NCBI GenBank assembly: GCA_036630325.1
Contig: CP142732.1
Coordinates: 682,001 to 746,000 of the forward strand
Length of the DNA stretch: 64,000 bases
Source: Vairimorpha necatrix
Lineage: Eukaryota
Reading direction: 5' to 3'
In this document: positions 1-64,000 of the stretch, piece by piece
Numbering within the stretch: the stretch's first letter is position 1
Layout of the letters: every line of letters starts with the position of its first letter
Program-made: the position numbers and the translations under genes
The notes under the pieces: generated by a model
What the model saw: only the letters and a program-made list of their open reading frames with translations
Database searches by the model: none
Told to the model about the DNA's origin: nothing

Positions 1-2
1 AA

Positions 3-3000
3 GTGGATGATACACGTCATAAAGAAATTTCGCGTGGAGATTATGTGGATGTAAAAGCGATTAGCTGCAAGGACCACGATAGAAAGATTTGGACTTCTAA
101 AAGGAACAAAGAAAAGAGATGTTTTATTTGCGGAAAGAAAGGCCATACAGTAGCACGGTGTAAATTCAATAGTTACCGTAGAGATATTAGCGAATCCAAG
201 AAACCCCAAGAAGAAGAAGGATAAAATAAGAAGATGGATGTAAAGGAATTTATTTATAATTACTCTGTTGCAAAGGTCAAGGATGATAGGACTACGCTCA
301 AAGAAGCTCACTGAATAATTCGGAAGTTAAATTTAAAGCGCTCATCGATACTGGTGCTGATATAAATCTAATTAGACCAGAGATTTTGCCAAATAAAACC
401 GTTGTTAATCGTTCTAAACAACAGCTTAGGGCAGCCAATGGATCGAAAATAAGGATCATTGGAGAAACAGTAGTTAAAATAAAAATTGAGGGAATGATAT
501 TTGAAGATAAATTCATTATTACTAGGGATATCACAATTCCCTGCATTATAGGAAAGGGGTTGCTCAACATGTACAAGATAAATTTAAAATTTGGAAATAA
601 CAAAATGGAAATTGAATCTGGACTCTTGGCAAAGGGAAAAGCCATAGGATATCATAAAATTATCACAAAGGATGATAACCCAATACTATTTCAATTATAC
701 AAATTGGGGGAGCAAAAGAGGATATTGCGTCCCAAATAGTGAAAGAGTATCTAAAACGTGGAATAGTTAGACATAGTGTAAGCGCATGGAGAAGCCCGAT
801 AATTATAGTCCCTAAAAAGAATGGAGACCACAGATTATGTGTGGATTATCGAAGATTAAATGATGCGACTATTAGAGATGCGTATCCAATGCCTAGAGTA
901 GAAGAGTTCATCAACGCTTTAGAGGGAGCAACATACTTTACTAAATTAGATGCTGAATCGGGCTATCACCAAATAGATATGGCGCCTTGTGATATTGAGA
1001 AGACAGCCTTTGCCTGTAGAGAAGGCTTATTTGAATTTACCAAAATGCCATTTGGACTTGTTAATGGCCCAGCTACATTTCAGCGGGTGATGAATGGTAT
1101 ATTGAGGGAATTTTTGTTTAAGTTTGTTGTAGTATACATGGATGATATACTAATCTATAGTAAAACTGAAGAAGATCATAAGAGAGATGTTCAAATGGTA
1201 CTAGAAAAGCTCAAGTCGGTAGGGCTTAAACTTAATAAGGAGAAATGCGAATTTAATAAGACCGAATTAAAAATTTTAGGTCATGTAATATCAAAAGAGG
1301 GAATAAGTGTGGACGAAGAAAGAGTTAGGAGCATTCAACAGTTACCAATTCCTAAAAGTAAGAAGAAATTACAATCTTTGTTGGGGCTGTATAATTATTG
1401 CTCTAAATTTATTAAAAACAGCCATAAAGTGGTTAGCCCACTATTCGATATAATAAGACTCAAGAATGAGGACGCTGATATTTTTTGGAAAAATGCAGAG
1501 AATGATGCAAAATACTGTAAGGCAATCGAAGAGGTAAAACAGGCAATGAAGAGAACAGCTTTATTGACAATTCCAAATTTAAAGGATAAATTTATATTGA
1601 CTACGGATGCATCGAATGAGGGAAGTGGGGCAACATTGGCTCAGATGGTCGGAGGAAAAGAAAAGATTATTTCTTATTACAGCTCTTTACACTCCAAGAC
1701 AGAAAAAAACTATTCTACTACTGAGCAAGAATTGCTAGCAGTTATAAAATCGATTCAAAACTTCAGGGAATATTTATTATTGGGGAAATTTACGCTAAAA
1801 ACGGATCATCAAGCTTTAAAATATTTGTTTAAGTCTAGGAATGTAAAAGCTAGGTTGGCTAGATGGTCATTACTGCTACAAGAATATGATTTCGACATTG
1901 AATATATTACAGGACCATCAAAACATACAGATCACCTAAGCAGAGATTTTTAAAACAGGAGGAGATAGTTTCAGAAATAAGTTCAATACAAAGGAAAATA
2001 GTTAAAAAAGAAAGGACAATAGTGCTATTAAAGTTTTACCATGATTTATTAGGGCATGGATCAAAACAAAATATGAAATATAATATTGGTCGAAAATTTA
2101 CTTGGAAGAATATGAGTAGAGACATAGAAAATTATGTAGATAATTGTGAAATTTGTCAAAAAGAAAAACCTCAGAGAAAATTTAGAGATATTATACCATT
2201 AGTAACAAAGACAATAGGAGAAATTTGGGAAGTAGACATAGTAGGGCCCTTGAGAGAAAGCGAGCAAGGATATAAATTTTTATTGACAATGATTGATCAC
2301 TTTTCGAAAATTGCAGAGGTGGTGCCGATTTATACAAAAGATATGAATACGGTTATTTATCTGGTAGATAAACATATAGTCAGGAAGTATGGTATTCCAA
2401 AGGCAATTCTATCTGATAATGGTAAAGAATTCAAAAATAATATCTGTGAGGAATATGCGAAATCCAAAAAATTCATCTGGAAATATGGTTCCCCTTATAA
2501 ACCTACAACCACGGGGCTTGTTGAGAGGTTTAACAGGACAATAGCCATAAAATTAAGGAAGGTTACAGAATTTGGGAAATTTGATTGGGCGAAATGTGTC
2601 CCTAAAGTAGTCAGAGCCTATATGCAATCATATCATAGGGCTATAGGGTGTGCACCAATAGAACTCTTAACAGGAATAGTTCCAAATAAGATAGATATAC
2701 AGGAAGGAATGCATCTAACAAAGGATAAGAAAGAGTTTCAGGAGCAGGCGATTAAGAACTTGGAAGTTTACAGACAAGAATATGACACGGGTAAACAAGC
2801 TAATTCTGTTGATAAAGAGGCCATTAAGGTGGGAGATAGAGTTTGGTATTATTTAATTTTACCGTTTAGAGGAAAACTCGAACCAAAATGGGAAGGAAAA
2901 GGAGTGGTAGTAGATAAAAAATTTCATTCATATAAAGTTTTATTAGATGATGGAAAGACTGTTACAGCAAGCCGAAATCATGTTAAGCTTTTAAAGGAGG

Positions 3001-3005
3001 GGTAG
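3..3005 (+). pseudogene. gag-pol polyprotein split into four ORF pieces (3-224 gag, ~290-739 protease, 739-1953 RT/RNase H, ~1955-3005 integrase)
   Basis: Domains are consecutive but in different frames, with shifts near 230, 720 and 1950. Confidence 0.85.
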
Positions 3006-3115
3006 TGTAGGAAGTGCTACACATGTCAAATATATGGTGTCATTGTTTTGACATATTTGACATGTCGTTTCTTTAAATATTTTATAATAATTAAACCCAT
3101 GTTTTTATCCCAACA
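3006..3115 (+). repeat. Probable 3' LTR (~110 bp, TG...CA)
   Basis: Starts with TGT directly after the PPT; contains a hairpin (ACATGTCAAATAT/ATATTTGACATGT) and CCCATG. The end at CCCAACA is inferred because the 5' LTR is not in the window. Confidence 0.55.
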
Positions 3116-4161
3116 GTATATATGCTATTTTATTAAAAGTCCAAAGTCCACATATTGTAGTATCTTTCTTGTTATTTTTATCTGATATATTGTCTTTTAA
3201 AAAATTAAACTATTTAATAATGCTTTTTTGTTGCCACTAGCAATGCTTAAAAAGCATAAAACTTTTTTATAAATATAAATTAAAAAAACATTATGTTGTA
3301 TATCCTACAATAACCTACATTTATTTTGAGTTAAAATGCAAATTAAAATTTATTGCGGGGTTTCATAGTAAATATTACTGTTTGGTGCAGTGCAAGTTAA
3401 AATACTTACTTTTTGTATTTAAAAACTCAATATTATTTTGAGTCTGAAAAGGACATTTCCAGATATTAATAAATTAATAATTTAAAATTTTCTAAAATGC
3501 TCTAATACTTCACAAAATAATCTATAAACAGGATGCTAAAACCTTATGTAAAAGATTTGCTATATTTTATATTCTTAATATGTCTTATTTAGCTATAATT
3601 AGATATGAATTTATTTTGAATACAGAGTTTTTAATTTAGATACTTTATCATTACATTTATATTCCGTGAAATTATATTCTTATATTTATAGGCGAAAAAT
3701 ACGCCATTTTACTCTCCATTACTCAATACCAAGGCGGAGAATGCCTATAGAATAGTAGGCGCTACTTCATTTTCTTGCCCCCCCCCCTAAAAAAAACATA
3801 CATAAAAAGATACAAAATCGTGTTATTTTTCAAATCTAAACATTTTTTTTTTTTGAGGGGGGCAAGAAAATGAAGTTAAGGTATTTTTTGTCGATTTGAG
3901 ATTTTTTAAATGCCTCCTTCAGATTCCTCATTAAGGGGTTAAAAAAATTTAATTTTTTAATCCTTAATAAGAAATTTAAAGGAAGCTATTCGGGAGCTAA
4001 ATATCTGCGAAGTTGCTGCTTTAGGCACAATGAAGCAGCAATTGATTTTTTTTTAAATAATGGTCTTCTAAAAAGATCGATTGCTTGCAGACATTGTTCG
4101 ACATCAGAACGAACTGTTCTTATGAACATTAATGGATGTTCCGGCTAAATTGACGGTAAAG

Positions 4162-4431
4162 TGTCATGTCCTCAAAACCATGACATCTGTGTTTTACTGT
4201 GTTAAAACTTAAATCAGTAAAACACTGCCCCGAACGAATAGTCTAAGGCGGAGATCTCTAACGATCGGACATGAAACGTTGTGTTTCATAAATAAATATA
4301 AATAGTCCAAAAAAGTTAGAAGACACCGAGCATGAAGAGTAACTTTAATAACAAATCAAATAAAAAGAAATATAATACAAATATTTTAGAAATGTATTTA
4401 AAAAACGGAGATATTACTCCGGTTCATGTCA
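4162..4431 (+). repeat. 5' LTR (270 bp)
   Basis: Direct repeat of 6708-6977. Confidence 0.95.
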
Positions 4432-5252
4432 TTTTGAATTCAAAGACATTAAATGAACAAAACGAAAAACGAAATAACGAAGATGACTATATACAAGTCA
4501 AAATCAAAGTTCCAGACTCGGACCTGGAATTTACGAAGAAATTAAAAATAATAAAAAACATCGAAAAATTCGATTTCATTCCTTGGTTTAAGGTATTTGA
4601 AGAAATAGCCACACAGAACAAATGGAATGCTGAACAAGGCATCATGATACTACGAAATTTAATTACTGATCGACGCCTAGAAGCGGATATTTTCATTACA
4701 GATGCAGCAACAACCAAAAGAAACTTAATTAAACATATTTTTGAGCAAGATGCTAAAGAAATGTTGCAAGAAGCCTTTAAGGTAAAACAAATAGATTTTC
4801 TTTTTATAGAAAACTATTATGAAAAGATTTACAACAAGATAAGTATCTATAGCGCTTATTACGAAATAAGCAAATCGGAATTTAACAGACATTTAAGCGA
4901 ATGCTTTTATCAAGGGTTAGGAAGAAACTCTACGTTTGAAATAATAAAACATAACTTAGGCGAGAACGTCTTAAATGCTTATAATCACCTAAAAAATATT
5001 GAGAAAATGATTCGAAAGAAAGCAGAAACTAAGAAAATAAACAAGGTGTCTAATGACGAGCCAGTATATCAAGAAAGAGAAGGATCATACAGTAAAAAGT
5101 TTTCAAACAAGACGAATAACCCAAGATCTTCGTATATAAATAAATGGTGTTCTATACACAAAACACTAGCCACGACACCAAAGACTGTTATTACAATAAA
5201 GACCGACAAAATGAAAATAAGAAGAAAGAAACGAGAGAAAATCTTAAGATAA
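4332..5252 (+). CDS. Gag-like protein; frameshifts into the PR-IN frame near 5160
   Basis: First ORF of the LTR element, ATG lies inside the LTR; ends in the first half of a zinc knuckle (WCSIH). Confidence 0.7.
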   Translation: MKSNFNNKSNKKKYNTNILEMYLKNGDITPVHVILNSKTLNEQNEKRNNEDDYIQVKIKVPDSDLEFTKKLKIIKNIEKFDFIPWFKVFEEIATQNKWNAEQGIMILRNLITDRRLEADIFITDAATTKRNLIKHIFEQDAKEMLQEAFKVKQIDFLFIENYYEKIYNKISIYSAYYEISKSEFNRHLSECFYQGLGRNSTFEIIKHNLGENVLNAYNHLKNIEKMIRKKAETKKINKVSNDEPVYQEREGSYSKKFSNKTNNPRSSYINKWCSIHKTLATTPKTVITIKTDKMKIRRKKREKILR

Positions 5253-6697
5253 TCAAAGAACCAATAAAAGTAATAAATGGAATTGAATTAGAAGGTTCAA
5301 TTGAAAAGAAAGAAACCAGATTTTTAATCGATACTACAGGTGCCACAAGAAATTTTATTAGTAATAAAAAGATCAAAGAATTGAAATTATCACCCATTGA
5401 AGATGTGGAAATCCAAACAAAATTTGCCAATGAGCAAAAAGAAATAACTAACAAAACAGTACTTGTTAGAATAACATTAAAGAATCTAATGAAAGAAAAA
5501 TACGTAAGATTTTATATATTAAAAAACAACAGCGATGATGTAATATTAGGAAATGAATTCCTAGTCGCAAATGAAGCAATAGTAAATTACAAAGAAGGAA
5601 CAATTTATGTAGGAAGTGAGAGATTGAAATTTCTACATAACGACGAATGTTGCGAATTAGACGCAATGTTATTTGAGAAAATGAATGTGTGCAAACAGGT
5701 AGATGAATGTGCATTAAAAACAGAAAATAAAAAGAACTTTAAAAAAGATGAAAAAGAAAGAATTTATATTGACAGAAAAATGACTAAAGAATTTATTAAA
5801 TTTGTCCACGAATTGTCGGGACATTGCGGGCAAGTAATCATGTATTTAAACTTAAAAAGATGGTACAACATCATAAACATTAGAACAGTTATCCGCAAGA
5901 TATGCAATCAGTGTATCGTATGTAAAGAAAACAAGGATTTTAAACAACAGAATCTAGAAAGAAATAAAATAGATAGCAGTGCACCATTTGAAATAATAAG
6001 CACAGATATTTTTGGTCCTTTTCTCCTGGAGGAGTTTGAGGGCGACTCTCTAAACCATAAGGGTTATATCTTGACCATAACCGATGTGTTTTCGAGATTC
6101 ACGAGAATTTGGTTTGGTGAGAAGTTTAGGAGTGAGGAAGTTATTATGTGTTTAAACGAATGGAGTGATGATTTTGCGAAGCCTAAAGCGCTAATTTCGG
6201 ACAATGGTCCGCAATATAAAAGTAAAAAAATGAAAGATTATACTAATAAAATACAAATCGAACATCGTCTAATACCGATATATTACCCCCAAAGCAATGG
6301 AATTTCAGAACGTATAAATCAAACAATTGCAGAAGTGCTGAGAATGAATATAGGAAAGAATATAAAACACATTATTATGCAAATTGAACATCGGATAAAT
6401 AATAATGTTAATACCACACTGGGAATTGCGCCTAGAGAAGCAATTTATAAGAATAGTTTTTATGACATTGAGAAAAGGGTTAATGTGCCATTTTTGCGAA
6501 ACATACCTGCAGTTGAAGTGAACTATAAGCGACGTATCGCAGTAAATGACATTGTATACTTAAAAAATTATAGCAATAATAAACTCGAGCGGAAATACTA
6601 TGGGCCGTTTAAAGTTATGGAAATCGGTAAGAAAGGAAGTTGGGTTCGACTTAAAGACATGCCCAACTGGGTTCATATTAAACAGTTGAAGCTGTAG
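5144..6697 (+). CDS. Aspartic protease fused directly to integrase
   Basis: FLIDTTGATRNFIS and ILGNEFL protease motifs, then HELSGH...CNQCIVC, STDIFGP, ISDNGPQY, SNGISER and YYGPF; no YxDD motif. Confidence 0.88.
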   Translation: MVFYTQNTSHDTKDCYYNKDRQNENKKKETRENLKIIKEPIKVINGIELEGSIEKKETRFLIDTTGATRNFISNKKIKELKLSPIEDVEIQTKFANEQKEITNKTVLVRITLKNLMKEKYVRFYILKNNSDDVILGNEFLVANEAIVNYKEGTIYVGSERLKFLHNDECCELDAMLFEKMNVCKQVDECALKTENKKNFKKDEKERIYIDRKMTKEFIKFVHELSGHCGQVIMYLNLKRWYNIINIRTVIRKICNQCIVCKENKDFKQQNLERNKIDSSAPFEIISTDIFGPFLLEEFEGDSLNHKGYILTITDVFSRFTRIWFGEKFRSEEVIMCLNEWSDDFAKPKALISDNGPQYKSKKMKDYTNKIQIEHRLIPIYYPQSNGISERINQTIAEVLRMNIGKNIKHIIMQIEHRINNNVNTTLGIAPREAIYKNSFYDIEKRVNVPFLRNIPAVEVNYKRRIAVNDIVYLKNYSNNKLERKYYGPFKVMEIGKKGSWVRLKDMPNWVHIKQLKL

Positions 6698-6707
6698 GGG
6701 GGCAGAC

Positions 6708-6977
6708 TGTCATGTCCTCAAAACCATGACATCTGTGTTTTACTGTGTTAAAACTTTAATCAGTAAAACACTGCCCCGAACGAATAGTCTAAGGCGGTGA
6801 TCTCTAACGATCGGACATGAAACGTTGTGTTTCATAAATAAATATAAATAGTCCAAAAAAGTTAGAAGACACCGAGCATGAAGAGTAACTTTAATAACAA
6901 ATCAAATAAAAAGAAATATAATACAAATATTTTAGAAATGTATTTAAAAAACGGAGATATTACTCCGGTTCATGTCA
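6708..6977 (+). repeat. 3' LTR (270 bp)
   Basis: Direct repeat of 4162-4431. Confidence 0.95.
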
Positions 6978-39496: not shown

Positions 39497-41104
39497 GGTG
39501 ACCGGAATTTTCGTCCCGGTGGTAGGGGTTAAAAAAATAAAAAAATAAAAAATCTCGGTTTTTTATTTTTTTAACCCCTACCACCGGGACGAAAATTCCG
39601 AAAAAAAAAATAAAAATAAAACTTTAATATTTCAATAATTTCAAAGACAAAATCTAAACCAACCCCTTCATCCACAGTTTTGTTTAAAAAATTAGCTAGC
39701 CGAATCTCTTTTTCAATGTATTTTTGTTTACGTTCAAAAACATGATTTAAAATTGTTTGTTGGATTATCTTGATTCGCACTATATCTTCTTCATCCTTTA
39801 ACTTGCTCACTAATAGATAAAAACTGTATCGACTTGTACCAAATGTGTTTTTAAAGGTATTATGCCAACCTTCAATCGCATTATTAGTTCTTGGAAAATC
39901 TATATCCATTTTATTTCTCGTATGCCACAAATTCGGCGGAAAACGACATCCTAAATCAATATAATTTGTAAAGAAATAGGCATATAACTCAGTCAAGCAT
40001 TCAGGGAAATTTCTGTCTTGTTTTAATTCCAAAAAAGTAGACAATATTTCGTCATATTCAACATATGCAAGTGCCGTAAGAGACAAAACAAATTTTTTCA
40101 CCATAGGTGAACATGTGTAAACAGAAGAAAGTCCTGAACTTTTAACACGTCTATCAATAGCCTGGGCTAAGTGAAAAAGACAACCCGAAATTTGACAATC
40201 CGAGAAAATTATTGAAAATGCTCTTATCGCAGCATACTCAAAATCGGGTTTTATCAACCTTGGGTTGAGCTCTGGAAACCTTCTCTTTAACAATTGAAAC
40301 AAAAAACAATAGGTTTCAAAACTTTTATCTTTTAAAATTGCAAATATAATCGGAAATACATGCGCTTCACGGATAAAACTAATTGTGTAAAGTTGATAAT
40401 ATGGAATTGGAACCACCGTAAAGGTCCCATCCATCGCCCACATGTCATATAGAGCCAGTTTTCCCATAGCTGAATCTGTATAAAAAACTATTATACTGTC
40501 ATTGGGTTTATCACTCCCGCAATTTTCAGGCCCATATCGATACCATTGTTCGCCTGTATGACTGATTAATTAATCAGCACATAAACCCAATGTTTGGTTG
40601 GCGTATGGTTTTGGATTTAAGAAATTTAGCCTAGCTTTCCTTAATATCCTCGCAATAGGCTCAATAGGGCCTATTGCGGCGATTGTTTCTTCACCAGCTC
40701 TTCTTAAGGAAGAAAAAAATGTTTCTAGAAGAATCTTTGCCAGAGATAATTTCCCGTTTCATTTTATCTATTTTATTCTTCCTACAGACCTGTTCAGGAT
40801 TTGGTTCATGATTATGAGGCGAAGAAATAATAAAGGATTCGAGATTATTGACGTAAACAATACTACTAATGGCCTTGGCATTACAGCTTCGTACAATGCA
40901 GCGCCACTTTATAGTAGTATTGTTGATTCTTTTTTTCTCGTAAATATATAGATTTTCATCTATTATTTGGTCCATATTTCTTTTGCTTTTAATGATCCTT
41001 TTTGTCCCGGTCATAGGGGTAAAAAATAAAAAAAGAAAAAAGTTCGTTTTTTTTATTTTTTAATTTTTTTAACCCCTATGACCGGGACGAAAAGACCGGG
41101 TACC
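39497..41104 (-). mobile_element. Mutator-like (MULE) DNA transposon
   Basis: 9-bp TSD GAAAATAAG at 39488-39496 and 41105-41113; imperfect TIRs GGTGACCGGAATTTTCGTCCCGG / GGTACCCGGTCTTTTCGTCCCGG. Confidence 0.92.
39571..41014 (-). pseudogene. MULE transposase (FLYWCH-like zinc finger plus DDE), disrupted
   Basis: WRC...C.A...HNH in 40691-41014; DGTF, DFE, GCLFH and TNNAIEGWH in 39571-40467. Confidence 0.88.
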
Positions 41105-42861: not shown

Positions 42862-45800
42862 TGTGATATATTTGTATAATTTCTATCCCCATTATGATAA
42901 ATAAAGACATGGGGGCGATACCGAATCGTCAGTTTACAAGTGTGGACTGTGGTCTAGAGGCCAAAAAGTTAATAAAGGAAGTTAGAAGAATAATGTATAG
43001 GTTGGAGATGGAGGAAGTAGAAATCAGTTTGTGGAAGCAGAGAATATTTATGGAAGGAAGTGAAGAAATAAAAAATTTCATGGTAGAAAGAATTAGTAAA
43101 GAGGACGAATATTATAAAATAATTGAGAAATTAGAGGAGGAAATATGTAGAGAAGAAAGAACTAAAAAAGAAGAAGAAAATAGGAGAGAACTTATGGAGG
43201 TTATAGCTGAGAATGTTAGAGAAACTGTGAGAAAAGAAATTCAAGAGAAAGATTTAGTTTTAAGGAGTACAGTACAAGAAATAAGAAATAATAGGAATTG
43301 TTTTAATTGTGGTAAATTTGGCCATATGGCTAGGAACTGCTATTTAGGAAGGAACAATAATCAGAAAAATAATAAAAAGTTTAATAAGTACTTAAATTTA
43401 GACGAAAACCAAAGTTGTAGTAGCAGTAATGATAATAAAGAATATAAACCAAGTGGAAAGACAAAACGAGTTAAGTTAAAGGAATGTAATAATAGTGATA
43501 GAAGACATAAAGAAAGAATATATGCGAGCAATAAAGAGACGAAAAGAAGATTACTGAAGAGGGAATTTACGTTGGAAGATCTCAAAGCGGAATATGAAGA
43601 AGTTTTTAAACAAGGAGATGAGGTTATAAGTTATTGTACATTAGAGAAGTGTAAGATAGATACTCCAGAGGGTAAGAAGATAGTCAGAAAGGGACAGACG
43701 ATCCCACAGGCTTTGATCAAACAGACTGAGGAATATATTAATGATTTAGAAAATAGAAAAATTATAAGAAGATCGTCTTCGGAATGGCGAAACCCAATAA
43801 TAGCGATACTTAAACCAAGTGGTGAAGTAAGAGTAGTTAGTAATTTTATAGGGTTGAATGATTTAGTCGAGAAAGACCCGTATGAGCTAACGAATATGAG
43901 AGAAATAATAAGAGCTACGCAAGGGTCGATAATATTTACTGTTGTTGATTGCAAAGAAGGATTTTACCATTTTGAAATCGAAGAAAAAGATAAACATAAG
44001 ACGGCGTTTGAATTTAATAAAAAAGTTTACGAATGGAATAGTATGGTGATGGGATACAAAAACTCCCCACAGATACTACAGAGAACGATGAATATGATTT
44101 TTGAAGATTTGCGAGGAAATGGTGTTGAGGTATACATGGACGATATAGTAATACATGCCAACAATAAATGTAAACACGATGAATTAGTAATAGAGGTTAT
44201 AGAAAGAATTAAGAGAAATAAAATGAAATTAAATATTGGGAAAATACAGTTTAGACAAGCGGAAGTAAAATTATTAGGTGTGACGCTGAATGGAATAGAC
44301 ATGACGGCCGACGAAATAAAGAAAAATGAAGCCTTGGAGTATCCGGATCCAAAAACTTTGACGGAATTGAGGAGGTTTCTAGGATTGACTGGGTGGTTCA
44401 GACCATTTATAAAAGATTATGCCGGGCTGACGTTGAAAATGACAGATAGTTTGAAGAAAAATGGCAATTCGTGGAAATTTACGGAAGAGATGAAAGAGGA
44501 ATTTACTAAAATGAAAAATGTTTTAAGAAATATGGGAAGACTAAGATTACCGGACTATAATAAGGAGTTCATACTAAGAACAGACGCTAGCAATTTGAGA
44601 TTGGGTGCGGTGTTACTTCAGAAGAATGAGAATGGGGAATGGGTTGCTATACAATGGGCATCTAAAAAGCTAACACCTACCGAAATAAGATATGGAATAT
44701 CAGAAAAGGAAATGCTTGCGATATATTGGGGCATTGATAAATTTAAATACGAGTTAAGAGGTAGGAAATTCAAGATAGAAACGGATCACAAAGCACTGGT
44801 GGAGATAAGAAATAAACCGTTTTTTTAATAATAACAGAATAAATCGCTTAATCGAGAAGATACAGGAATATGATTTTATCGTTGAATATAAAAAACCTGA
44901 TGAGATGGTGGTAGCAGATGCGTTGAGTCGAATAAATATGGAAGAGGATATTAAAGAAATGAAAAATAAAGAGCGAACAATCAAGCAAACAGAAGGTAAA
45001 TGGAAAGCACATGTTTCTTCCGAGAATGGAAAGCAATATTGGCAATTTGACTCAGGACGTAAAGTTGAAATACCACCTGAGAATATAAGGAGACAATTAA
45101 TCCAAGAATATCATGAAAAAGTAGGCCACAGATGCATGACAAGTGTTTATTATGCAATGAGAGAAGAATACTATTGGCCAGGAGTAAAGAAAGAAATAAA
45201 CGAGGTTATAAAACAGTGTCAGAAATGTCAGATATATAACAGGAAAAATATGGGTGGTTGTGAATTTGTAGATACGTCGAGATACATAGAGAAGGTTGCA
45301 TTAGATTTGATAGACTTTAGAAATTAGAAGAAATATGTTTTAGTTGCTATCGATTATTTTACACGTAGAGTATGGGGAGTAGTTATAAATAACAAGTCAA
45401 GTAATAATGTTGTTGGATTTTTGAAAAGATTATGTGAGCAAGGGAAGAAACCAGAAGAAATTATTACAGATAACGGAAAAGAGTTTATTACGTGGAATTT
45501 AGAAAATTTTGTAGAGATCTCGATATAATACACCGACAAGTAAGTATAGAAGCGCATAGAAGTAACGGAAGAGTAGAGCGTGTTATAGGAACTTTGAGAG
45601 AAAGTATTTTAAAGTCGGATGCGAAAACTTTTGAAGGTAAAGTATATAAAAGTATCGATGTATATAATCAGAGCTATCATACGGGAATAAAATGTACACC
45701 ATTAGAAGCGACTGAAGATAAAACTGGAGACGTAATGCTTGAAAATAGCCCTTTAGGGAAATATTGTAATAGGTTTGGAAAAGGAAAGATCGAAAAATTT

Positions 45801-46079
45801 AGCAAAGGTCAATTGGTAAGAATAGCTAAACGAGAAAATGTGGCAGGTGTTAATAAGTATGAAAAAGGAAGATTTTTGGATACAGGAAAAATTGTTGAAA
45901 AGTGTGGAAAAGATTCTTATATTGTAAAACTTAGTAATGGTAGGCTTGTGAAGAAGAGACATTATGATCTGAAGGGTATGCTTGGGGTAGATGTGAAAAT
46001 TAGATGAGACTAACCGTCTTGAGGGGGGGATGTGATATATTTGTATAATTTCTATACCCCATTATGATAAATAAAGACA
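42862..46079 (+). mobile_element. Compact Ty3/Gypsy element (3218 bp) with 48/49-bp LTRs and no protease
   Basis: LTRs at 42862-42909 and 46031-46079 (TG...CA, one indel), TSD ATAAA, TGG-starting PBS at 42910, PPT GAGGGGGGGA at 46021-46030. Confidence 0.93.
42894..46007 (+). pseudogene. mini-Gag-RT-RNase H-integrase polyprotein, disrupted
   Basis: CFNCGKFGHMARNC, YMDD, TDAS, HHCC, TDNG and SNGRVER motifs; frameshifts near 44825 and 45490 and a stop at 45325-45327. Confidence 0.9.
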
Positions 46080-47925
46080 ATAAATTTTATAACAAGGGGT
46101 CTATAAAAATGAAACGAGGTTTTTATAAAAAATAAATGAGTTGTCTTTTAAAATTTAACAAGGGTTCTATAAAAATAAAATGAGGTGTCTATAATTATGA
46201 AACAAGATGTCTATAAAAATGAAATGGACTGTAAATTAGAACCAATAGATTTCTAAAGTCTCGATTTTGATATCCGACAGTTACTTATTAAGTACCAGGT
46301 CCATCTACGGCCAGCCTGCAAGGAAAGACTATACCTACCTAGATCCGAATTTGGTAGAGGCCTCATAAGTATCGAATATAGAAGCGAAAATATGCTTCTG
46401 AATATTTATAAAACAACAGATGAGTATAGAAATAGCTCACTAAGACGAACAGCGATACTTAAAGTAGAGGCAGAGAACAAATCGCACTTGTTTACAACTA
46501 ACGAGTATATAAAGATTAGGTATAGCTTTGTAGGAGAGATAACCCAGAAGATGCTAATATAATCCCCCAAAAACGCTCTACAACAAAATTGACATAAGGA
46601 CAAACCATGGAAAGTTGTTTAAAGCTAGGAGTAATGATTTAGTAAGCATTAGGGACTCTTCTGACTGGCTGGTTAAGGAAACAATCAGGCCAGATTCGAA
46701 GCAATTTACTGCTATCTACAGAATAGAAATATTTTCTGTTGACAAGTGGGACAATGTCCCCATTGTGGATCTCATAGGAAGACCGTGAATCATTTAGCTA
46801 CCTAGTGTGATCGAATGTTTGGTTTTGATTATATGAAAAGACACAACGAGGTATTTTGTTGCATTTATCTCTTACTATGTATTTATATGGGTTTAAGAAG
46901 GCAAAGAAATACATGAACACTCGGTACAAGAGATCGTGGGAAATGATCGTGCAGAATAAGAGTAGATACGAGAATTTCCACTAATACAAATGTGACCCAT
47001 AATAATCCGGATATTCTTGTATTTGACAAGACGAATAAGAAATTTTAATAGTTGAAGTTGGTATAACCAACCCATATCGACTTATTATAGTCGAGAATGA
47101 AAAACTAAGAAAATATGGACTTCATGCAAATGAACTGGGACTAATACATAAATCTCGGACAAGAATAGTTCCTAATGTAATGACATGAGATGGAGTGGTG
47201 ACCAAATATCACAGAAAGTACATCAGGAAGCTGGAAATCCAACCCTACTTGGAAGCAAACATCCAGTCTATTGTGATTAAGAAAATATTAGAATCCACCT
47301 TGATGGAACGACGACTAGGATACGATCAGCAAGATGCAGGGAAGAAGTAGTGGCTAGAGCTGTAAGCACACTAGAGAATATGGCGACTGTTAAAGAAGTG
47401 GTTTCGGCAAAGGGAAATGGAGCTGAAAAAAGTGAAGTTGGAAAGTATTAATAATTCCACAGAAACCAAAGCCTGTAAAGAGCTGAATCTTATGACGATG
47501 CCGGGGAAAAATGTGCTATGAATATCTAAGCTTAATGATAAATTGGCTCAATAAAACTTTAAAATTTCTAAGTTTTGAATGCTTCTTAGGTAAAAACCCC
47601 AAATATCAATAGCCCTTGAACTCAAAACGGTTATTAAGAAACATAAATTTATTTATTTGATCAATTTATGGTAAATATTAAATGATGTTTTATATATCAT
47701 TGATGAAAATTTATACTTCCAATAATAGCACATATAATTCATCGTTTAATAGAATAAATTGATCTTAAATACTTATTCTCGTAAAAAAAGTACCATATTA
47801 TTATATCAAAATAAAGATTATCTTTATATAGTTCTTTGATGTAGAAATTATTGCAAAAAAAATCAATTTGTATCAGTAATGATACAGCTAGATTATTGCA
47901 AGATCCAAGCTTTACAATGAACAAA

Positions 47926-57179: not shown

Positions 57180-58202
57180 GGCTAAAGTAAGCATTAGCTA
57201 CAAAAAATCGATATAGGGTTTTTTTGTTTTTTTTTGCCCCTTTTTTTTAAAAATGGAGGAAAGAATTCGGACAAGAGAAGAATTGGAGATCATGTATAAT
57301 GATCTAATAATAAAGAAACAAAATAAAAAATGTAGCGTCTGAAATTAAAAAATGAAGCAAAGAGGGGAGCAAAGAAGTCTCATAAGGTGTCCATGGAGCT
57401 CTTGTAAAAACACAATTTCAATTTGGAATGGAACTTTCTTTCAGGAGTCCTCGCTAAATCACATTACAATATTACAAAACTAAATTTATGGATTTTAGGT
57501 TATTCACGTAAGTCCATTTCTCAAGTTTTAGGTTGTACTAAATCTTCTATATCTTCCATTATAAAAAATTTAAAACACATGAGTCTTTATGATAAGTATT
57601 TATCTAGTATAGGGACTATTGGAGGCGATAATACTATAGTGGAAATTGATGAGACTAAGATTGGGAAGAATAAATACAATAGGGGGAAGTTAGTAAAAGG
57701 ATTTTGGTGTTTTGGAATGGTTGAACGTACCATCCAACGTAGAATCATAGTAGTATATATTAAGAAAAGAGACAAAAGAACACTTACTGAATTTCTTTTA
57801 AAATATGTAAGTAGAAGCAGTATTATATATAGCGATATGTGGAGAGCGTATCATTCTTTAAATACAATGTTTAAACAACATCATATGGCTAATCATACAT
57901 TACATTTTAGAGATCCGAATACAGGAGTACATACCAATACCATAGAAAGTATTTGGTTATCTCTAAACCATTCTATACCAAATAGAAACAGATCATAGAA
58001 TAGCACTAAACTTTATTTATTTAGATATATGATCCAAAGAAACTCCACAACTCCAGTGTTTGAAGATTTATTAAAATATTTATTCTAGTTTTTATTTTTG
58101 TTCCTTCCTCATCATTTTCTTTCCTCCATTTTTTAAAAAAAGGGGCAAAAAAAAACAAAAAAACCCTATATCGATTTTTTGTAGCTAATGCTTACTTTAG
58201 CC
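57180..58202 (+). mobile_element. Merlin DNA transposon (second family)
   Basis: ~80-bp TIRs GGCTAAAGTAAGCATTAGCTAC...; 8-bp TSD CATTTTTG at 57172-57179 and 58203-58210. Confidence 0.94.
57253..58088 (+). pseudogene. Merlin (IS1595-type DDE) transposase, disrupted
   Basis: VEIDETK, KYNRG, IYSDMWRAY and HTNTIESIW motifs; stops and frameshifts at both ends. Confidence 0.88.
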
Positions 58203-59100: not shown

Positions 59101-59863
59101 GACGTTGAAAGGATTATGGAGCAGGAAACTACCTACAAGCAGGAGACGCTAATGCGGAACCTATCCCAGTGAACTATAAATATAAACTAAAATAAGCATA
59201 CCCTAATTATTTCATATATTCTTCTGCGTTATTCAAACTTCTAATATCTATTTATAATTCAGGGAAATGTTATATTAAATTTTATCATCTCTTGTTTAAA
59301 TTTAGTTAGTTAAATCCGTTTACTAGCAGTAAAATGCTTGTCTTAGATTGAGAGTTTTTGACATAATATTTTGAGTTGTTCATTCTTTTCTGAGCGTAAA
59401 AATTCATTATTTTGATATTATGTCTAATTTGGAAGATTATAAATATTATCAAGAGTGTATAACGCAGTTTAAATTTACAATTTCATCTACCGGTGTATTT
59501 CTGGAACCCGAATATATATAATGGCTAGTATCAACAATAAAATACATTTATACAAAATAATCAAATTAGAAATTACGGCAATTGGAAATATTCAAAATTT
59601 AATAACATTATAACATTTCTTTTCTGATTTTATAGTAATTAATATCAAAATGTTAAAGTAAAAGACAAGTTTGATTGAACTTATACCTCTACAAGGTTCG
59701 TTATCATAATTCTTTGTAAACTACAATCAAGCTTTTGCAATAACAATTTTTATTTTACAGATATTGTGCAAATCTGTTCATAAAATGGCCTTCTTAACTA
59801 TAGTTTTTTTAGTAAGACTAAATAGAATAAATACCATTTGTAGATAAAAAATTCTTAATTGAG

Positions 59864-59866
<3 letters not shown>

Positions 59867-59904
<38 letters not shown>

Positions 59905-59956
59905 CCTAAAACAAGTAAAATTTTTTTAAGCTTTCTTCTATATATATATATATATA
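59867..59956. repeat. Two (TA)n microsatellites
   Basis: Pure TA runs at ~59867-59899 and ~59939-59956. Confidence 0.9.
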
Positions 59957-60617
59957 GTTTTGTGATTTTTTTAATTTTTAAAACAGCTTGAGTTTTTCTA
60001 AATGTTTTGTGTTCAATTTCCAATGTTTTGCCTAATTTTTTTCCAGTCCAATTCTTTTATTGTTTTTATGATGGAATTGTACTTATTCGCCTTGCATACA
60101 CTAAAGATTTCAGATTAGTACCATAAAAGAAGCATGAAAAAAACGAGAATTTAAATGACTAAAAGGGTCTAATGTGAAACGTAAACATAAATTAGTGATC
60201 AAGAAGGGCTATTCTAGAACATAATGGGATGATGACTAAAGAAACTTTGGGGCAGCAACCGAAAAAAAGTATCTTAATCTGTATAAATATTAGCTTAATA
60301 AAGTTTTTTGCTCAGGTAACCTATAAATAGTTTACCGCTTTAGTATGCACGAATTTTTATATTAATATTGGTGTGAGCCAATAATCTTAAAGGTTATTAC
60401 GATATATATATGCTATTAATTGTTATTAAATAATTATGCCAAAATCGTTTTTAATATGATTACTCTCGAGGGCTGAAATAGTGCATTGAATAAGAGAGTT
60501 GATATTGCTTACCGGCAAAGAAGTACAGCGGAATATATTCTTATAGTTTTCATAATTTAGGTAAAAAGCATCATAAAAGATGAAGGCCTCTTATAAATTG
60601 AATTTTATATTATAATA

Positions 60618-63600
60618 TGTAGGGTTTAGAACCCTTAATAAATAAATGGTTAACATGGCGAACACAAGGATGAACAGGGAAACAAGAGAGTCCCGTAGTC
60701 AAGAGGCTAGAACATTAGAGAAAGAGGCAATTAGGATAGATAAGAGACTAAAGTTAATATTGAAAGTTGAGAAAGTTGAGTGGAAAGATGTTATGGATTT
60801 GGCATCTGCGAACTTGCAGGATTATATTTTTGAAAATTTTTGTGACGGAAGGAGCAGTTGGGAGGAAATTTATAAAGGCTTACAAAAAGGAGCAGAATTT
60901 GAGAGAGAGTCAGAAGAAAGACAAGAAATGATTAAAGAGATTATGGATAAAGTGTTGAAAGAGTTTAGGGAAGAAAGAAAAGAAAATCTTAGGATGTATA
61001 GGAAAAGAAGAGAAATCAGAGAAACTACAAAATGTTTTATATGTAAGAAAGAAGGGCATTACGCTAGAGAATGTCATGAAAGTGTAGCTGGTAGGGAAAA
61101 ATATAAAATTAAAAAGGAACAAGTTTTACAGAAAGAACCAATTATCAACAATGAAGGGAAAAGATGTAAAACAGTAAATAAGTTAGAAAATTTAATTGAA
61201 AAGTATCCGGAAGTTTTTAAAGAATCAGAAGAAAAGATAAAATATCTCACAGGAGAGAAGTGTCCAATAAATACTAAGCAAGGTGAAAAGGTTGTGAAAA
61301 GAGGGCAGAATGTGCCATACTACCTTAGGGTGAAATTTGAGGAGTACTTGAATAAGTTGGAAAATAGAGGGGTTATAAGACGTTCCAAAAGTGAGTGGAG
61401 GAGTCCAATAAGAGCACTTGAAAAACCAAATGGGGACGTAAGATTGGTAAGCAATTTGATGGCGTTAAACGATTTGGTTGACAAGGACCCGTACTCACTA
61501 CCGTTAATTAAGGATATTATGAGAGCCACACAGGGGTCAAAAGTATTTACGGTTATCGACTTAAAAGAAGGGTTTTATCATATTGAGATTGAGGAGCACC
61601 ATAAGCACAAAACAGCATTTGAAGTGAATGGTCGAGTATACGAATGGAATAGTATGGTTATGGGGTTTAAGAATTCGCCTCATATAATGCAGAGAGTAAT
61701 GAACAGAGTTTTAGATGAATTCAGAGGTAAAGGCGTGGAAGTATATATGGATGATATAGTTATTCATGGTAAAGACGTAAGAGTGCATGACGAGTTACTA
61801 GAGAGGGTAATTAAAAAGTTTAAAGAGTGTGGGTTGAGAATAAACCAAACAAAGATACAATACAAAAAAGATGAGGTGATGTTGCTGGGAGTAACAATTA
61901 ATGGGGAGGTCATGGGACCGAATGAGATTAAAAAGCAGGAGACATTGGAATATAGAAAACCTGAGAATGTTAGAGAGTTAAGAAGATTTTTAGGACTAAC
62001 TGGTTGGTTTAGAGACTTTATTCCCAACTATGCGTATAGAACAGTAAGGCTTACTGAGGCTTTAAAGAAAGATGTTAAGTGGAATTGGACGGAGGATATG
62101 GAAAGAGCTTTTGAGGATATGAAGCAAGGCTTGAGAGATATGAAAAAGTTGAAGATTCCGGACGGAAAAAAGCTATTTAGAGTAAGAACTGATGCGTGTG
62201 ATACGGGGATCGGAGCAATTCTATTACAAGAAAATAAAGAGGGTGAGTGGATTCCGATACAATGGGCATCGAAAATGTTGACTCCTACCGAGCGAAGATA
62301 TACGATAAGTGAGAAGGAGATGTTGGCGGTGTTTTTTGGAATAAAGAAGTTTGAAAGTGATTTGAGAGGAAGGAAATTTCATTTGATGACGGATCATAAA
62401 GCATTAGCAGAGATCAGAAATAAGCCATACTTCAATAATAACAGAATAAACAGATGGGTAGAACAGATACAAGAGTTTGACTTTACAATAGAGTATGTGA
62501 AAGGGGAGTTGATGACAGATGCAGATGCGTTAAGTAGGCAGTATGATCAGGTAGAAGTTTCGGATGAACAAAAAGAAAAGGACAACAAGAGAAAAGAAGT
62601 GATCGAAAAACAAATTTTGGGAAAAAAGCAGAAACATATTAAAGAAAAGGACGGTAAACAGTATTGGGAATTTTCCACAGGTGAGGTGAAATAGATATTG
62701 AGCCTAGATAGTAGAGAACATGAAATAACAAGAGTACATGAGGAGTTAAACCATAGAGGTGTCAAAGGCACTTATTATAACATTAAACAAAGATGGTATT
62801 GGCCTGGTATGAAAGATCATATTAATAAGGTAATTAAGAATTGTGAAATATGTGGGATTAACAATAGGAAAAACACAGGAGGATGTGATTTCGTAGTAAC
62901 TAGAAAGAAATTGGAGAAAGTGGCGTTGGATTTAATGGACATAGGTGGAGAGAATAGGTATGTGTTACTGGGTATTGATTACTTTACTAGAAGGTTGTGG
63001 GGTTCGAATTTGAGATGTAAAGAGAGTAGTGAAGTTATAGAGGTATTACAAAAGTGGATAAGGGAAGATGGATTTCCAGAGGAATATGTGACAGACAACG
63101 GAAAAGAGTTTGTAAGTAATAGATTTAAAGAATGGTGTAGTATTAATGATATTAAACATAGGAAAGTGGGCTTAGAAGCTCATAGGAGTAATGGTAGAAT
63201 CGAGAGATGCATCAGAACTATAAGAGAGACATTGATAAAGCAAAATGATGGGAATATTTCTGAAAAGATAGAAAGAGCAATCAAAGGATATAATAATACA
63301 CTACATACAGCAATAAAATGTACGCCGATGGAAGCGTGGAGAGATCAAACTGCTGAAGTTATAATTGAAAATGATGAAAATGGAAAATATGCTGGTCGGT
63401 TCAAGAGAAGACACAGAGAGACATTTACAGTAGGCCAAGAGGTAAGAATCGCTAGGAGAGAAAATTTAGGTACACGTGCGAAAACAGACAAGGGAAGATT
63501 CACGGGACGCGGAAGGATCGTAGCTATAAGTGAAAATGATTCATATATTGTGAGACTACTGGATGGTAAAATTGTTAAAAAGAGGCATTATGATTTGAAA

Positions 63601-63692
63601 GAGATAAGGAAGAGTTGTTTAGAAGATGGAGAGACTACCCGTCTGGAGGGGGGATGTAGGGTTTAGAATCCTTAATAAATAAATGGTTAACA
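60618..63692 (+). mobile_element. Compact Ty3/Gypsy element (3075 bp) with 38-bp LTRs and no protease
   Basis: LTRs at 60618-60655 and 63655-63692 (1 mismatch, TG...CA), TSD TAATA, TGG-starting PBS at 60656, PPT GGAGGGGGGA. Confidence 0.94.
60646..63666 (+). CDS. Single-frame mini-Gag-RT-RNase H-integrase polyprotein with one in-frame TAG at 62692-62694
   Basis: Both ORF pieces are in the same frame; CFICKKEGHYAREC, YMDD, TDAC, HHCC, TDNG and SNGRIER motifs. Confidence 0.88.
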
Positions 63693-63887
63693 TAATATAC
63701 AAAAAACCTATATTCAGCTATAAGAGCTTTAAATTTCTGCTCCTGAATTTTTTTCATTTTTTATTACCGGGGTTGGATTATAAGATCCATATATAAAAAA
63801 GATTATGGATCTTATTTATAAGTGGATCTTTTCTTTTGACATAAACTATTTGAAATTTCTTCTTAAATTTTTTGAATCTTTACCCCC

Positions 63888-64000
63888 ATGAAAAAAAAAA
63901 ACCTTACACGCTTAAAGAAAAATTAGAAGGATTACAAAAATTGCGTGAAATCAATGGCAAAATAAGTATGCCTACTTTCAAGTTGCAGATTACTAGAAAA
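63888..64000 (+). other. Start of a possible pogo/CENP-B-like HTH ORF, cut by the window edge
   Basis: CCCC-ATG, then an A-run and YTLKEKLEGL; a 12-bp inverted repeat lies upstream at ~63780-63815. Confidence 0.3.

Follow-up and report, generated by a model that had tools for sequence, protein, structure and literature searches.

Introduction

Retrotransposons of the Ty3/gypsy type (Metaviridae, e.g., Ty3 of budding yeast) typically have long terminal repeats (LTRs) of hundreds of base pairs, LTRs in general can reach several kilobases, and the Ty3/gypsy lineage has members with a single open reading frame (ORF) in fungi, the Tf1/sushi-type elements. Here, we describe an element, called A, at positions 60618 to 63692 (plus strand, 3,075 bp) of a 64,000-nucleotide stretch of the genome of the microsporidian Vairimorpha necatrix (GenBank assembly GCA_036630325.1, contig CP142732.1, positions 682,001 to 746,000 of the forward strand). 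We call this whole stretch the window, and all positions refer to it. Element A resembles the Ty3/gypsy type in its domains, namely a Gag-like part with a putative CCHC knuckle, reverse transcriptase (RT), RNase H, and an integrase composed of H2C2 and rve domains, and also in its TG..CA ends, its 5-bp target-site duplication, the TGG that follows the 5' LTR, and the polypurine tract (PPT) that precedes the 3' LTR. It differs in having LTRs of 38 bp, no protease, and a length of only 3,075 bp for the whole element, and in a frame whose start and stop codons both lie within the LTRs, which makes the candidate primer-binding site (PBS) and the PPT coding themselves.

According to PMC4202319, microsporidia-specific groups of Ty3/gypsy elements encode a single polyprotein and not separate gag and pol. 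Element A shares this trait with the elements of that study (those of Anncaliia algerae and other consensus elements). It differs from Consensus_retroA of A. algerae, whose shared start and end (file S1 of PMC4202319) point to an LTR much longer than 100 bp, compared with 38 bp in A. It also differs from the elements Nbr1 to Nbr8 of Nosema bombycis, which are described (PMC2474625) as coding for a protease in addition to Gag, RT, RNase H, and integrase, whereas A has no protease. Unusually short LTRs with TGT..ACA ends and a 5-bp duplication are found, as in A, in two grass SMART elements: FRetro129, presented as the "smallest LTR retrotransposon," with an LTR of 85 bp, and FRetro64, with LTRs of 76 to 90 bp (PMC3281118). 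Yet these LTRs are about twice as long as those of A, FRetro129 is noncoding, and FRetro64 is a 5.2-kb copia-type element. In the full-text literature, we found no LTR shorter than 76 bp, and the 38 bp of A are about half of the shortest published length found. We also found there no LTR length, PBS, PPT, or duplication for Nosema or Vairimorpha elements, a result that is provisional on Xu et al. 2006 and on the tables of PMC4202319. Provisionally, we assign A to a branch of the microsporidian Ty3/gypsy elements that is ultra-compact, lacks a protease, and has LTRs of 38 to 67 bp, and we did not find this branch in print.

Termini and integration of element A

Our analysis indicates that A is very probably a true member of the Ty3/gypsy lineage of LTR retrotransposons, resident in a microsporidian of the Nosema/Vairimorpha type, and that it integrated at TAATA as a 3,075-bp unit with 38-bp LTRs (Table 1). 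Its ancestry is supported by the content and order of its domains and by its relatives. The terminal features that an earlier note on this DNA had described were all found where it placed them: the 38-bp TG..CA repeats with one mismatch, the TAATA on both sides, the TGG and the PPT adjoining the LTRs, and, within the repeat itself, the CCC, the overlapping AATAAA signals, and the ATG of the polyprotein, with the stop codon supplied by the 3' copy. The 5' LTR reads TGTAGGGTTTAGAACCCTTAATAAATAAATGGTTAACA, and the 3' copy differs from it once (C to T at repeat position 15). A repeat search lengthens the pair to 40 nt by adding one base on each side. The TGG starts at 60656, directly after the 5' LTR, and a block like AGAGACTACCCGTCTGGAGGGGGGA also precedes the 3' LTR, nearly unchanged, in two relatives presented below (B and L001).

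Since the region is AT-rich and short matches are common in it, one could suspect that a retroelement pseudogene is flanked by similar sequences by chance, or that the assembly produced an artefact. We consider this explanation extremely improbable. The 38-mer has two matches in the window at up to three mismatches, and none of 100 dinucleotide-preserving shuffles had any match. The chance of a flank match in five of five positions is about 0.0023 at window composition, and duplications with other letters flank two further elements of the window, B and D. Finally, A is present at 99 to 100% identity in four independent sequencing runs.

The contigs of these four public runs (X1, X2, and X3 among them) were taken from Logan and aligned to window positions 60300 to 64000. 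In X1 and X2, contigs join 60614 directly to 63695 and skip 3,080 bp. This is the length of the 3,075-bp element plus one 5-bp TAATA, and the joint therefore corresponds to an empty site. It is carried by one contig in X1, with 30 nt on the shorter side, and by one 995-nt contig in X2, with 249 nt on the shorter side. Two other X1 contigs match A from exactly 60618 and have unrelated sequence before it, whereas an X2 contig has in common with A the LTR and 13 nt of TGGCGAACACAAG, and diverges at 60668. The earlier note had asked whether the flanks are polymorphic for the insertion, and the empty site, together with the divergence at exactly 60618, gives a positive answer. The body of the element is covered in X1 by two contigs, 60638-62048 (0 differences) and 62019-63683 (3 differences), which end inside the 38-bp repeats, as one would expect if the repeat is just longer than the word of the assembler. 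Their word depths are 60.6 and 65.3, compared with 4.03 for the flank contig, a depth that is not a copy number. Near-identical copies of A occupy other sites in other samples, and the element was recently mobile.

Table 1. Features of the window (positions in the 64,000-nt stretch)
Feature	Positions	Strand	Remarks
Left target-site duplication TAATA	60613-60617	+	Single TAATA in the empty-site contigs of X1 and X2
5' LTR of A, 38 bp, TGT..ACA	60618-60655	+	GGG 60622-24, CCC 60632-34, ATG 60646
Overlapping AATAAA pair in 5' LTR of A	60637-42 and 60641-46	+	
PBS candidate TGGCGAACACAAG	60656-60668	+	Adjoins 5' LTR; also coding (M-A-N-T-R)
Single polyprotein frame of A	60646-63666	+	Gag-like, RT, RNase H, integrase; no protease
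Gag-like N-terminal part	60646-61230	+	Residues 14-127 predicted helical, CCHC knuckle, predicted helix and disordered linker
CCHC zinc knuckle, residues 129-143	61030-61074	+	Pfam zf-CCHC
RT (RVT_1), residues 259-418	61420-61899	+	Pfam E = 2.7e-31
RNase H (RT_RNaseH_2 / RT_RNaseH), residues 481-611	62086-62478	+	E = 1.7e-30 and 7.1e-28
In-frame TAG	62692-62694	+	Between RNase H and integrase; only in the window copy
Integrase (Integrase_H2C2 and rve core)	62713-63162	+	E = 8.2e-15 and 9.6e-11
Conserved block AGAGACTACCCGTCTGGAGGGGGGA	63630-63654	+	Ends in the PPT; also coding (ETTRLEGG)
PPT GGAGGGGGGA	63645-63654	+	Adjoins 3' LTR
3' LTR of A, 38 bp	63655-63692	+	Holds the stop codon of the frame, 63664-66
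Right target-site duplication TAATA	63693-63697	+	
Element B, 3,218 bp	42862-46079	+	Second family of the clade of A
LTRs of B, 48/49 bp, TG..CA	42862-42909 and 46031-46079	+	
Target-site duplication of B, ATAAA	42857-42861 and 46080-46084		
Element C	1-3100		Cut by window start; start of 3' LTR (TGTAGGAAG...) near 3007
Element D	4162-6977		270-bp LTRs, 98% identical; duplication TAAAG
MULE-type transposase ORF	39571-40467	-	
ISXO2/IS1595-like DDE transposase ORF	57423-57998	+	

A polyprotein frame running from LTR to LTR

The frame of A, for a polyprotein of roughly 115 kDa, takes up 3,021 of the 3,075 nt (98.2%), from the ATG in the 5' LTR to the TAG in the 3' LTR, an extent that rules out a miniature noncoding element of the TRIM or SMART kind. 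A second in-frame ATG (60655-57) is made of the last A of the LTR and the TG of the TGG. The earlier note was right to call nearly the whole element coding, as far as the span of this one frame is concerned, but overlooked that the TAG at 62692-94 cuts it into two ORFs of the same frame in the window copy, 60646-62694 and 62698-63666. The contigs of all four runs have another letter at 62692, which restores a sense codon, and the TAG is therefore private to the window copy. This private stop, with the one LTR mismatch, indicates that the window copy is dead. From the run contigs and the ORFs in the databases, we infer that intact copies of the family exist.

For the N-terminal part of the protein, we used 21 relatives to build an AlphaFold2 model (mean pLDDT [predicted local distance difference test] of 82.7), which predicts that residues 14-127 are helical, with one helix spanning 72-127. 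After the zinc knuckle, it predicts a helix, a disordered linker at residues 156-176, and a helix leading into the RT. No Pfam capsid family matched the approximately 115 helical N-terminal residues. Atlas leads from this part of A to clusters of Retrotrans_gag/Ty3_capsid scored only 0.79 to 0.82, i.e., below 0.9, and a BLASTP comparison with the PNMA-like Gag of element L138 (see below) aligned the zinc knuckle alone.

Relatives of A and the length of LTRs across the lineage

The named protein nearest to A belongs to Nosema granulosis, with 73% identity across 97% of the query length, and other named relatives are from Vairimorpha apis, V. necatrix, Pseudoloma, and Enteropsectra. Those of N. 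granulosis and Vairimorpha are named as Ty3/gypsy-type polyproteins (17.6, opus, gypsy, Tf2). The position of the frame may have left traces in the aligned proteins. If the ATG-GCN of the second start is made of the last A of the LTR and a TGGC... PBS, and if another in-frame ATG lies a few codons upstream in the LTR, one expects N-termini of the form M-x(2-6)-M-[AG]. This form was found in 12 of the 21 aligned members, four more begin with MA or MG, and MANT(R/K) recurs at the N-termini of relatives. At the other extremity, at least 5 C-termini end in residues of the "GET..GG" type plus a few more, which correspond to the polypurine block and the first codons of the LTR. Thirteen Logan rows have proteins of 996 to 1031 amino acids on contigs of 3,035 to 3,159 bp. 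This fits an interior that is nearly all ORF, although it is no measure of LTR length.

The second family of this clade in the window, element B, is about 47% identical to A in amino acids and 64% in DNA. It has TGGGGGCGATACC after its 5' LTR and GAGGGGGGGA before its 3' LTR, and no solo B LTR was found elsewhere in the window. A 22-bp tandem repeat of at least five units (46090-46242) lies directly downstream of B, and may represent a shared insertion neighborhood or a satellite. The reverse complement of this repeat resembles the flank ..TTATAGACACCTTG found upstream of other copies of A in X1 and X3.

A closer relative, L001, is 67% identical to A and lies on a contig binned in a "Clostridium" metagenome-assembled genome (MAG). 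Its 5' end is off the contig, and only the 3' LTR is available: the interior ends with ...GAGACTACCCGTCTGGAGGAGGGGA, followed by a 38-nt repeat (29 of 38 positions as in A) and then by unrelated sequence, starting with the flank TGAAA. A search of the bins holding such contigs with a polyprotein profile found 79 matches, and a single bin accounts for 52 of these. Four elements from metagenomes and MAGs are complete and have perfect or near-perfect TG..CA repeats, with LTRs of 58 bp (L129), 67 bp (L083), 75 bp (L145), and 172/176 bp (L138). In L002, the 5' end holds a candidate LTR of 47 nt, on a contig that stops before the 3' LTR. The contig ends of L134 and L141 are identical over 117 nt and 129 nt, respectively, which could be either a lower bound for the LTR or an assembly overlap.

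Among viral contigs, there was no relative of the A protein and no match to the pattern of the PPT block. In genome contigs, this pattern matched L001 and, four times, large bacterial contigs, which we took as chance. A metagenome scan gave only generic gypsy elements (approximately 24 to 34% identity). Their flanks were short, LTRs were recovered for few of them, and they are therefore a poor control for LTR length. Microsporidian retroelement contigs were seen in MAGs labeled Clostridium, Turicibacter, Erysipelotrichales, Brevinema, and Thermoguttaceae (L001, L002, L083, L097, L099; G001-G005). Such microsporidian contigs in bacterial MAGs are eukaryotic contamination of the bins.

We placed these elements in a FastTree phylogeny of 41 polyproteins, which was midpoint-rooted, with local supports only, and included neither copia nor BEL elements as an outgroup. 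The crown, with a support of 99, comprises A, P0001, L001, and B. The outer branches are, in turn, (P0055, P0056), L083 with P0058, and L129 with P0063 (and P0068). L145, L138, L134, L141, and C belong to another clade, together with arthropod-type elements. LTRs are at most 67 bp long in five of the five measured members of the clade of A, and range from 75 to approximately 175 bp in the other clade.

The earlier note had pointed to a deleted copy of a family with long LTRs as the finding that would undo its reading. The window copy of A is indeed dead, and element D, in the same window, has 270-bp LTRs. Still, a deleted or degenerate copy is highly improbable here. Both LTRs are equal in length, one adjoining the PBS and the other the PPT; a 3,075-bp unit was integrated, as seen from the empty site; and the run contigs break inside the 38-bp repeats. 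Moreover, the repeat of L001 is homologous and also 38 bp long, and LTRs of 48 to 67 bp are found in B and in L129 and L083, on the outer branches. Because of these lengths in B, L001, L129, and L083, short LTRs are a trait of the lineage and not the result of a deletion.

Absence of a protease

Hidden Markov model searches found no protease family at E ≤ 10 in residues 1-270 of A or in residues 1-302 of B. The model of A has no β-rich domain between the zinc knuckle and the RT and predicts helices and disorder instead, which would leave no room for a protease. The same searches succeeded on two positive controls of the window: C (RVP, E = 1e-6, with an ALIDTGA motif) and D (gag-asp_proteas, E = 4e-10). 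Between the zinc knuckle and RVT_1, A has 116 residues, compared with 156 for B and approximately 214 for C. No protease family was found in 20 of the 21 alignment members, the exception being P0058, the most distant (34% identity), while P0050, P0055, and P0056 have enough residues before the RT to hide a diverged protease. Elsewhere, L129 has no protease match though it has room for one, the match is weak in L083 (E = 4.8e-4) and L138 (E = 7e-4), and it is clear in L145, L134, and L141. The earlier note had not remarked on the missing protease of A.

This absence bears on autonomy. A could be a non-autonomous passenger that lost the protease and most of the capsid and that is packaged and processed in trans by elements of the type of C or of L145/L138. 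This explanation concerns autonomy only and is compatible with A being a genuine short-LTR retrotransposon. We find it conceivable but rather unlikely. A lacks a protease, and protease-bearing Ty3/gypsy elements are present in the same window and in the bin with L001. However, the protease-less crown is large and diverse (20 of the 21 aligned members, at 36 to 57% identity), and many of its frames are intact, at approximately 1,000 amino acids, which suggests long-term selection on their own proteins. Furthermore, the candidate helpers belong to a different clade in the tree.

Host signals and the anatomy of the LTR

The window has a GC content of 22 to 35%. We took its 21 non-transposon ORFs of at least 150 amino acids as a sample of host genes. 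A CCC at -3 to -20 of the ATG was found in 14 of these 21 (background, 0.062), and in 13 an AATAAA or ATTAAA begins no more than 30 nt from the stop (background, 0.143). These signals agree with published work: CCC lies within 15 bp of the ATG and, in N. ceranae, TATA peaks near -27 (PMC2685015). In another study, 5' untranslated regions (UTRs) are tiny or absent, with CCC-like and GGG-like signals (PMC10815200).

The LTRs carry the same signals. All seven complete LTR elements (A, B, L129, L083, L145, L138, and D) have LTRs that start with TGT and end with ACA, an in-frame ATG, located within the LTR or at the junction, that is preceded by a CCC or GGG, and an AATAAA or ATTAAA 5 to 29 nt before the 3' end of the LTR. 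A TGG follows the 5' LTR in six of the seven, D being the exception. Just upstream of the in-LTR ATG of L138, the 5' LTR (68-243) reads GGAGGGATG, where the 3' LTR (3853-4024) reads GGGCCCATG, i.e., GGG-like and CCC-like signals at the same position of one LTR pair. The earlier note had proposed that U3, R, and U5 were compressed onto the promoter and terminator grammar of the host. This stands at the level of sequence, given the host CCC and the AATAAA in the LTRs, and goes no further. At that level, we infer that the LTR of A was reduced to the signals needed by microsporidian genes themselves.

These signals do not include a TATA-like run upstream of the CCC in the LTR of A, and this raises another possibility. 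The 38-bp repeat could be just an integrase site and a homology for strand transfer, with the promoter provided by an AT-rich target; here, the 5' flank TTATAATA is TATA-like approximately 30 nt before the ATG. The position is close to the TATA peak of N. ceranae near -27 (PMC2685015). In addition, in the runs X1, X2, and X3, contigs that stem from other copies agree with the flank TTATAATA (60605-60617) over 8 to 13 nt and then diverge, with loose ends at 60610 and 60605. However, B, L083, and L145 have TATA-like runs of their own inside the LTR, two X1 contigs diverge right at 60618, and the 3' flank of L001 (TGAAA) and the duplication of B (ATAAA) are merely AT-rich. The matching flanks are also few, among the loose ends listed. 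Overall, we think it rather improbable that the repeat lacks a promoter role, although the flanks weakly suggest that a TATA-like target may complete the promoter of A.

A possible replication mechanism

Returning to A as a genuine LTR retrotransposon, its replication could proceed as follows. As in host genes, the transcription start would lie a few bases past the GGG/CCC, leaving a U3 of approximately 17 to 25 nt, and either of the two in-frame ATGs would serve to initiate translation. Poly(A) cleavage would take place at or just past the 3' end of the LTR, because AATAAA lies 5 to 29 nt before it, and U5 would be nearly nil. The first strand transfer would then have as its sole homology an R of approximately 10 to 20 nt. 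Paired with TGGCGAACACAAG, whose initial TGG fits the CCA at the 3' end of tRNAs, a tRNA would prime a very short minus-strand strong-stop DNA, to be transferred to the 3' R. The PPT would prime the plus strand, and the integrase would act on the TGT..ACA ends. Since there is no protease, and since only approximately 125 helical residues precede the zinc knuckle, two modes of action are probable for the polyprotein: it functions without being cleaved, or relatives that carry a protease in the same genome assist it in trans.

Tf1/sushi elements prime themselves, whereas the TGG start in A fits the CCA of a tRNA instead, with no complementarity to the LTR beyond 4 to 5 nt. In all six elements of this comparison, the longest complement between LTR and PBS is 4 to 5 nt, which was equalled by 126 to 716 of 1,000 shuffles, and self-priming of the Tf1 style is not supported.

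A bolder proposal is that A belongs to the most reduced self-sufficient lineage of LTR retrotransposons known. Such elements, of 3.0 to 3.2 kb, would lack a protease, have a Gag made of a helical segment and a knuckle, and use an uncleaved polyprotein in a ribonucleoprotein and not in a capsid. They would have almost no U5, an R of approximately 10 to 20 nt, and a promoter of which one part, a TATA-like box, comes from a preferred AT-rich target. We put this forward tentatively, as a possibility that we would not bet on.

Several observations count against the above interpretation of A, either as a genuine element or in its details. The empty-site contigs differ from the flank of the window by 7 to 8 letters and 5 gaps in 315 nt, and they must thus come from another strain, another species, or a paralogous site, and not from the genome of the window itself. 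Both copies of the clade in the window are defective: A has its stop, and the frame of B is interrupted in at least two places. The zinc knuckle scores 19.3 to 20.8 bits, at or just below the Pfam cutoff of 20.8. None of the four complete elements from metagenomes and MAGs (L129, L083, L145, and L138) has a matching 5-bp duplication; chimeric assembly across a multicopy element may be the cause. The tree carries warnings for composition and long branches, one of them on L129, and is approximate. The single tRNA gene of the window (Arg-TCT) has no complementarity to any PBS. A transcription start near the CCC would put AATAAA in the 5' R, where it would have to be ignored, as is plausible so close to the cap. 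Finally, without a protease and with a very small Gag, the autonomy of A is doubtful.

Other transposons in the window

The window is a transposon-dense stretch. In element C, which is approximately 35% identical to A, a CCHC knuckle is followed by an aspartic protease, whose frame is not that of the RT, and then by RT, RNase H, and integrase. In element D, the order is Gag, protease, and integrase, with no RT or RNase H between them; its ATG (4332) is inside the 5' LTR. D looks like an internally deleted, non-autonomous derivative of a Ty3/gypsy element. Two DNA transposase ORFs complete the set (Table 1), and the ISXO2/IS1595-like type is also represented among the A. algerae consensus elements (PMC4202319, file S1). 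Long (TA)n palindromic runs occur at 59860-59956, approximately 700 bp upstream of A.

Implications

The compactness of A has consequences for the way in which we think of these elements. Because a clade with LTRs of 38 to 67 bp does integrate, approximately 40 nt would be enough to accommodate a promoter, a repeat for strand transfer, a poly(A) signal, and the two ends used by the integrase, and both the PBS and the PPT may be protein-coding. It also has practical consequences. LTR finders have a default minimum LTR length near 100 bp, and with such a minimum they will miss the class of elements to which A belongs. The 85-bp LTRs of the grass elements were found by lowering the minimum to 50 bp (PMC3281118). 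Surveys of microsporidian repeats have used RepeatModeler and RepeatMasker (PMC7313128), and surveys of this kind would report such elements as LTR-less "polyprotein genes."

The polyprotein raises a further question: are capsid assembly and proteolytic maturation dispensable for retrotransposition of the LTR type? A protease-less polyprotein with a tiny Gag is a natural test of this. If the lineage of A is indeed the most reduced one that is self-sufficient, it would set a new lower bound on the LTR and Gag-Pol content with which the retroviral scheme of replication can work.

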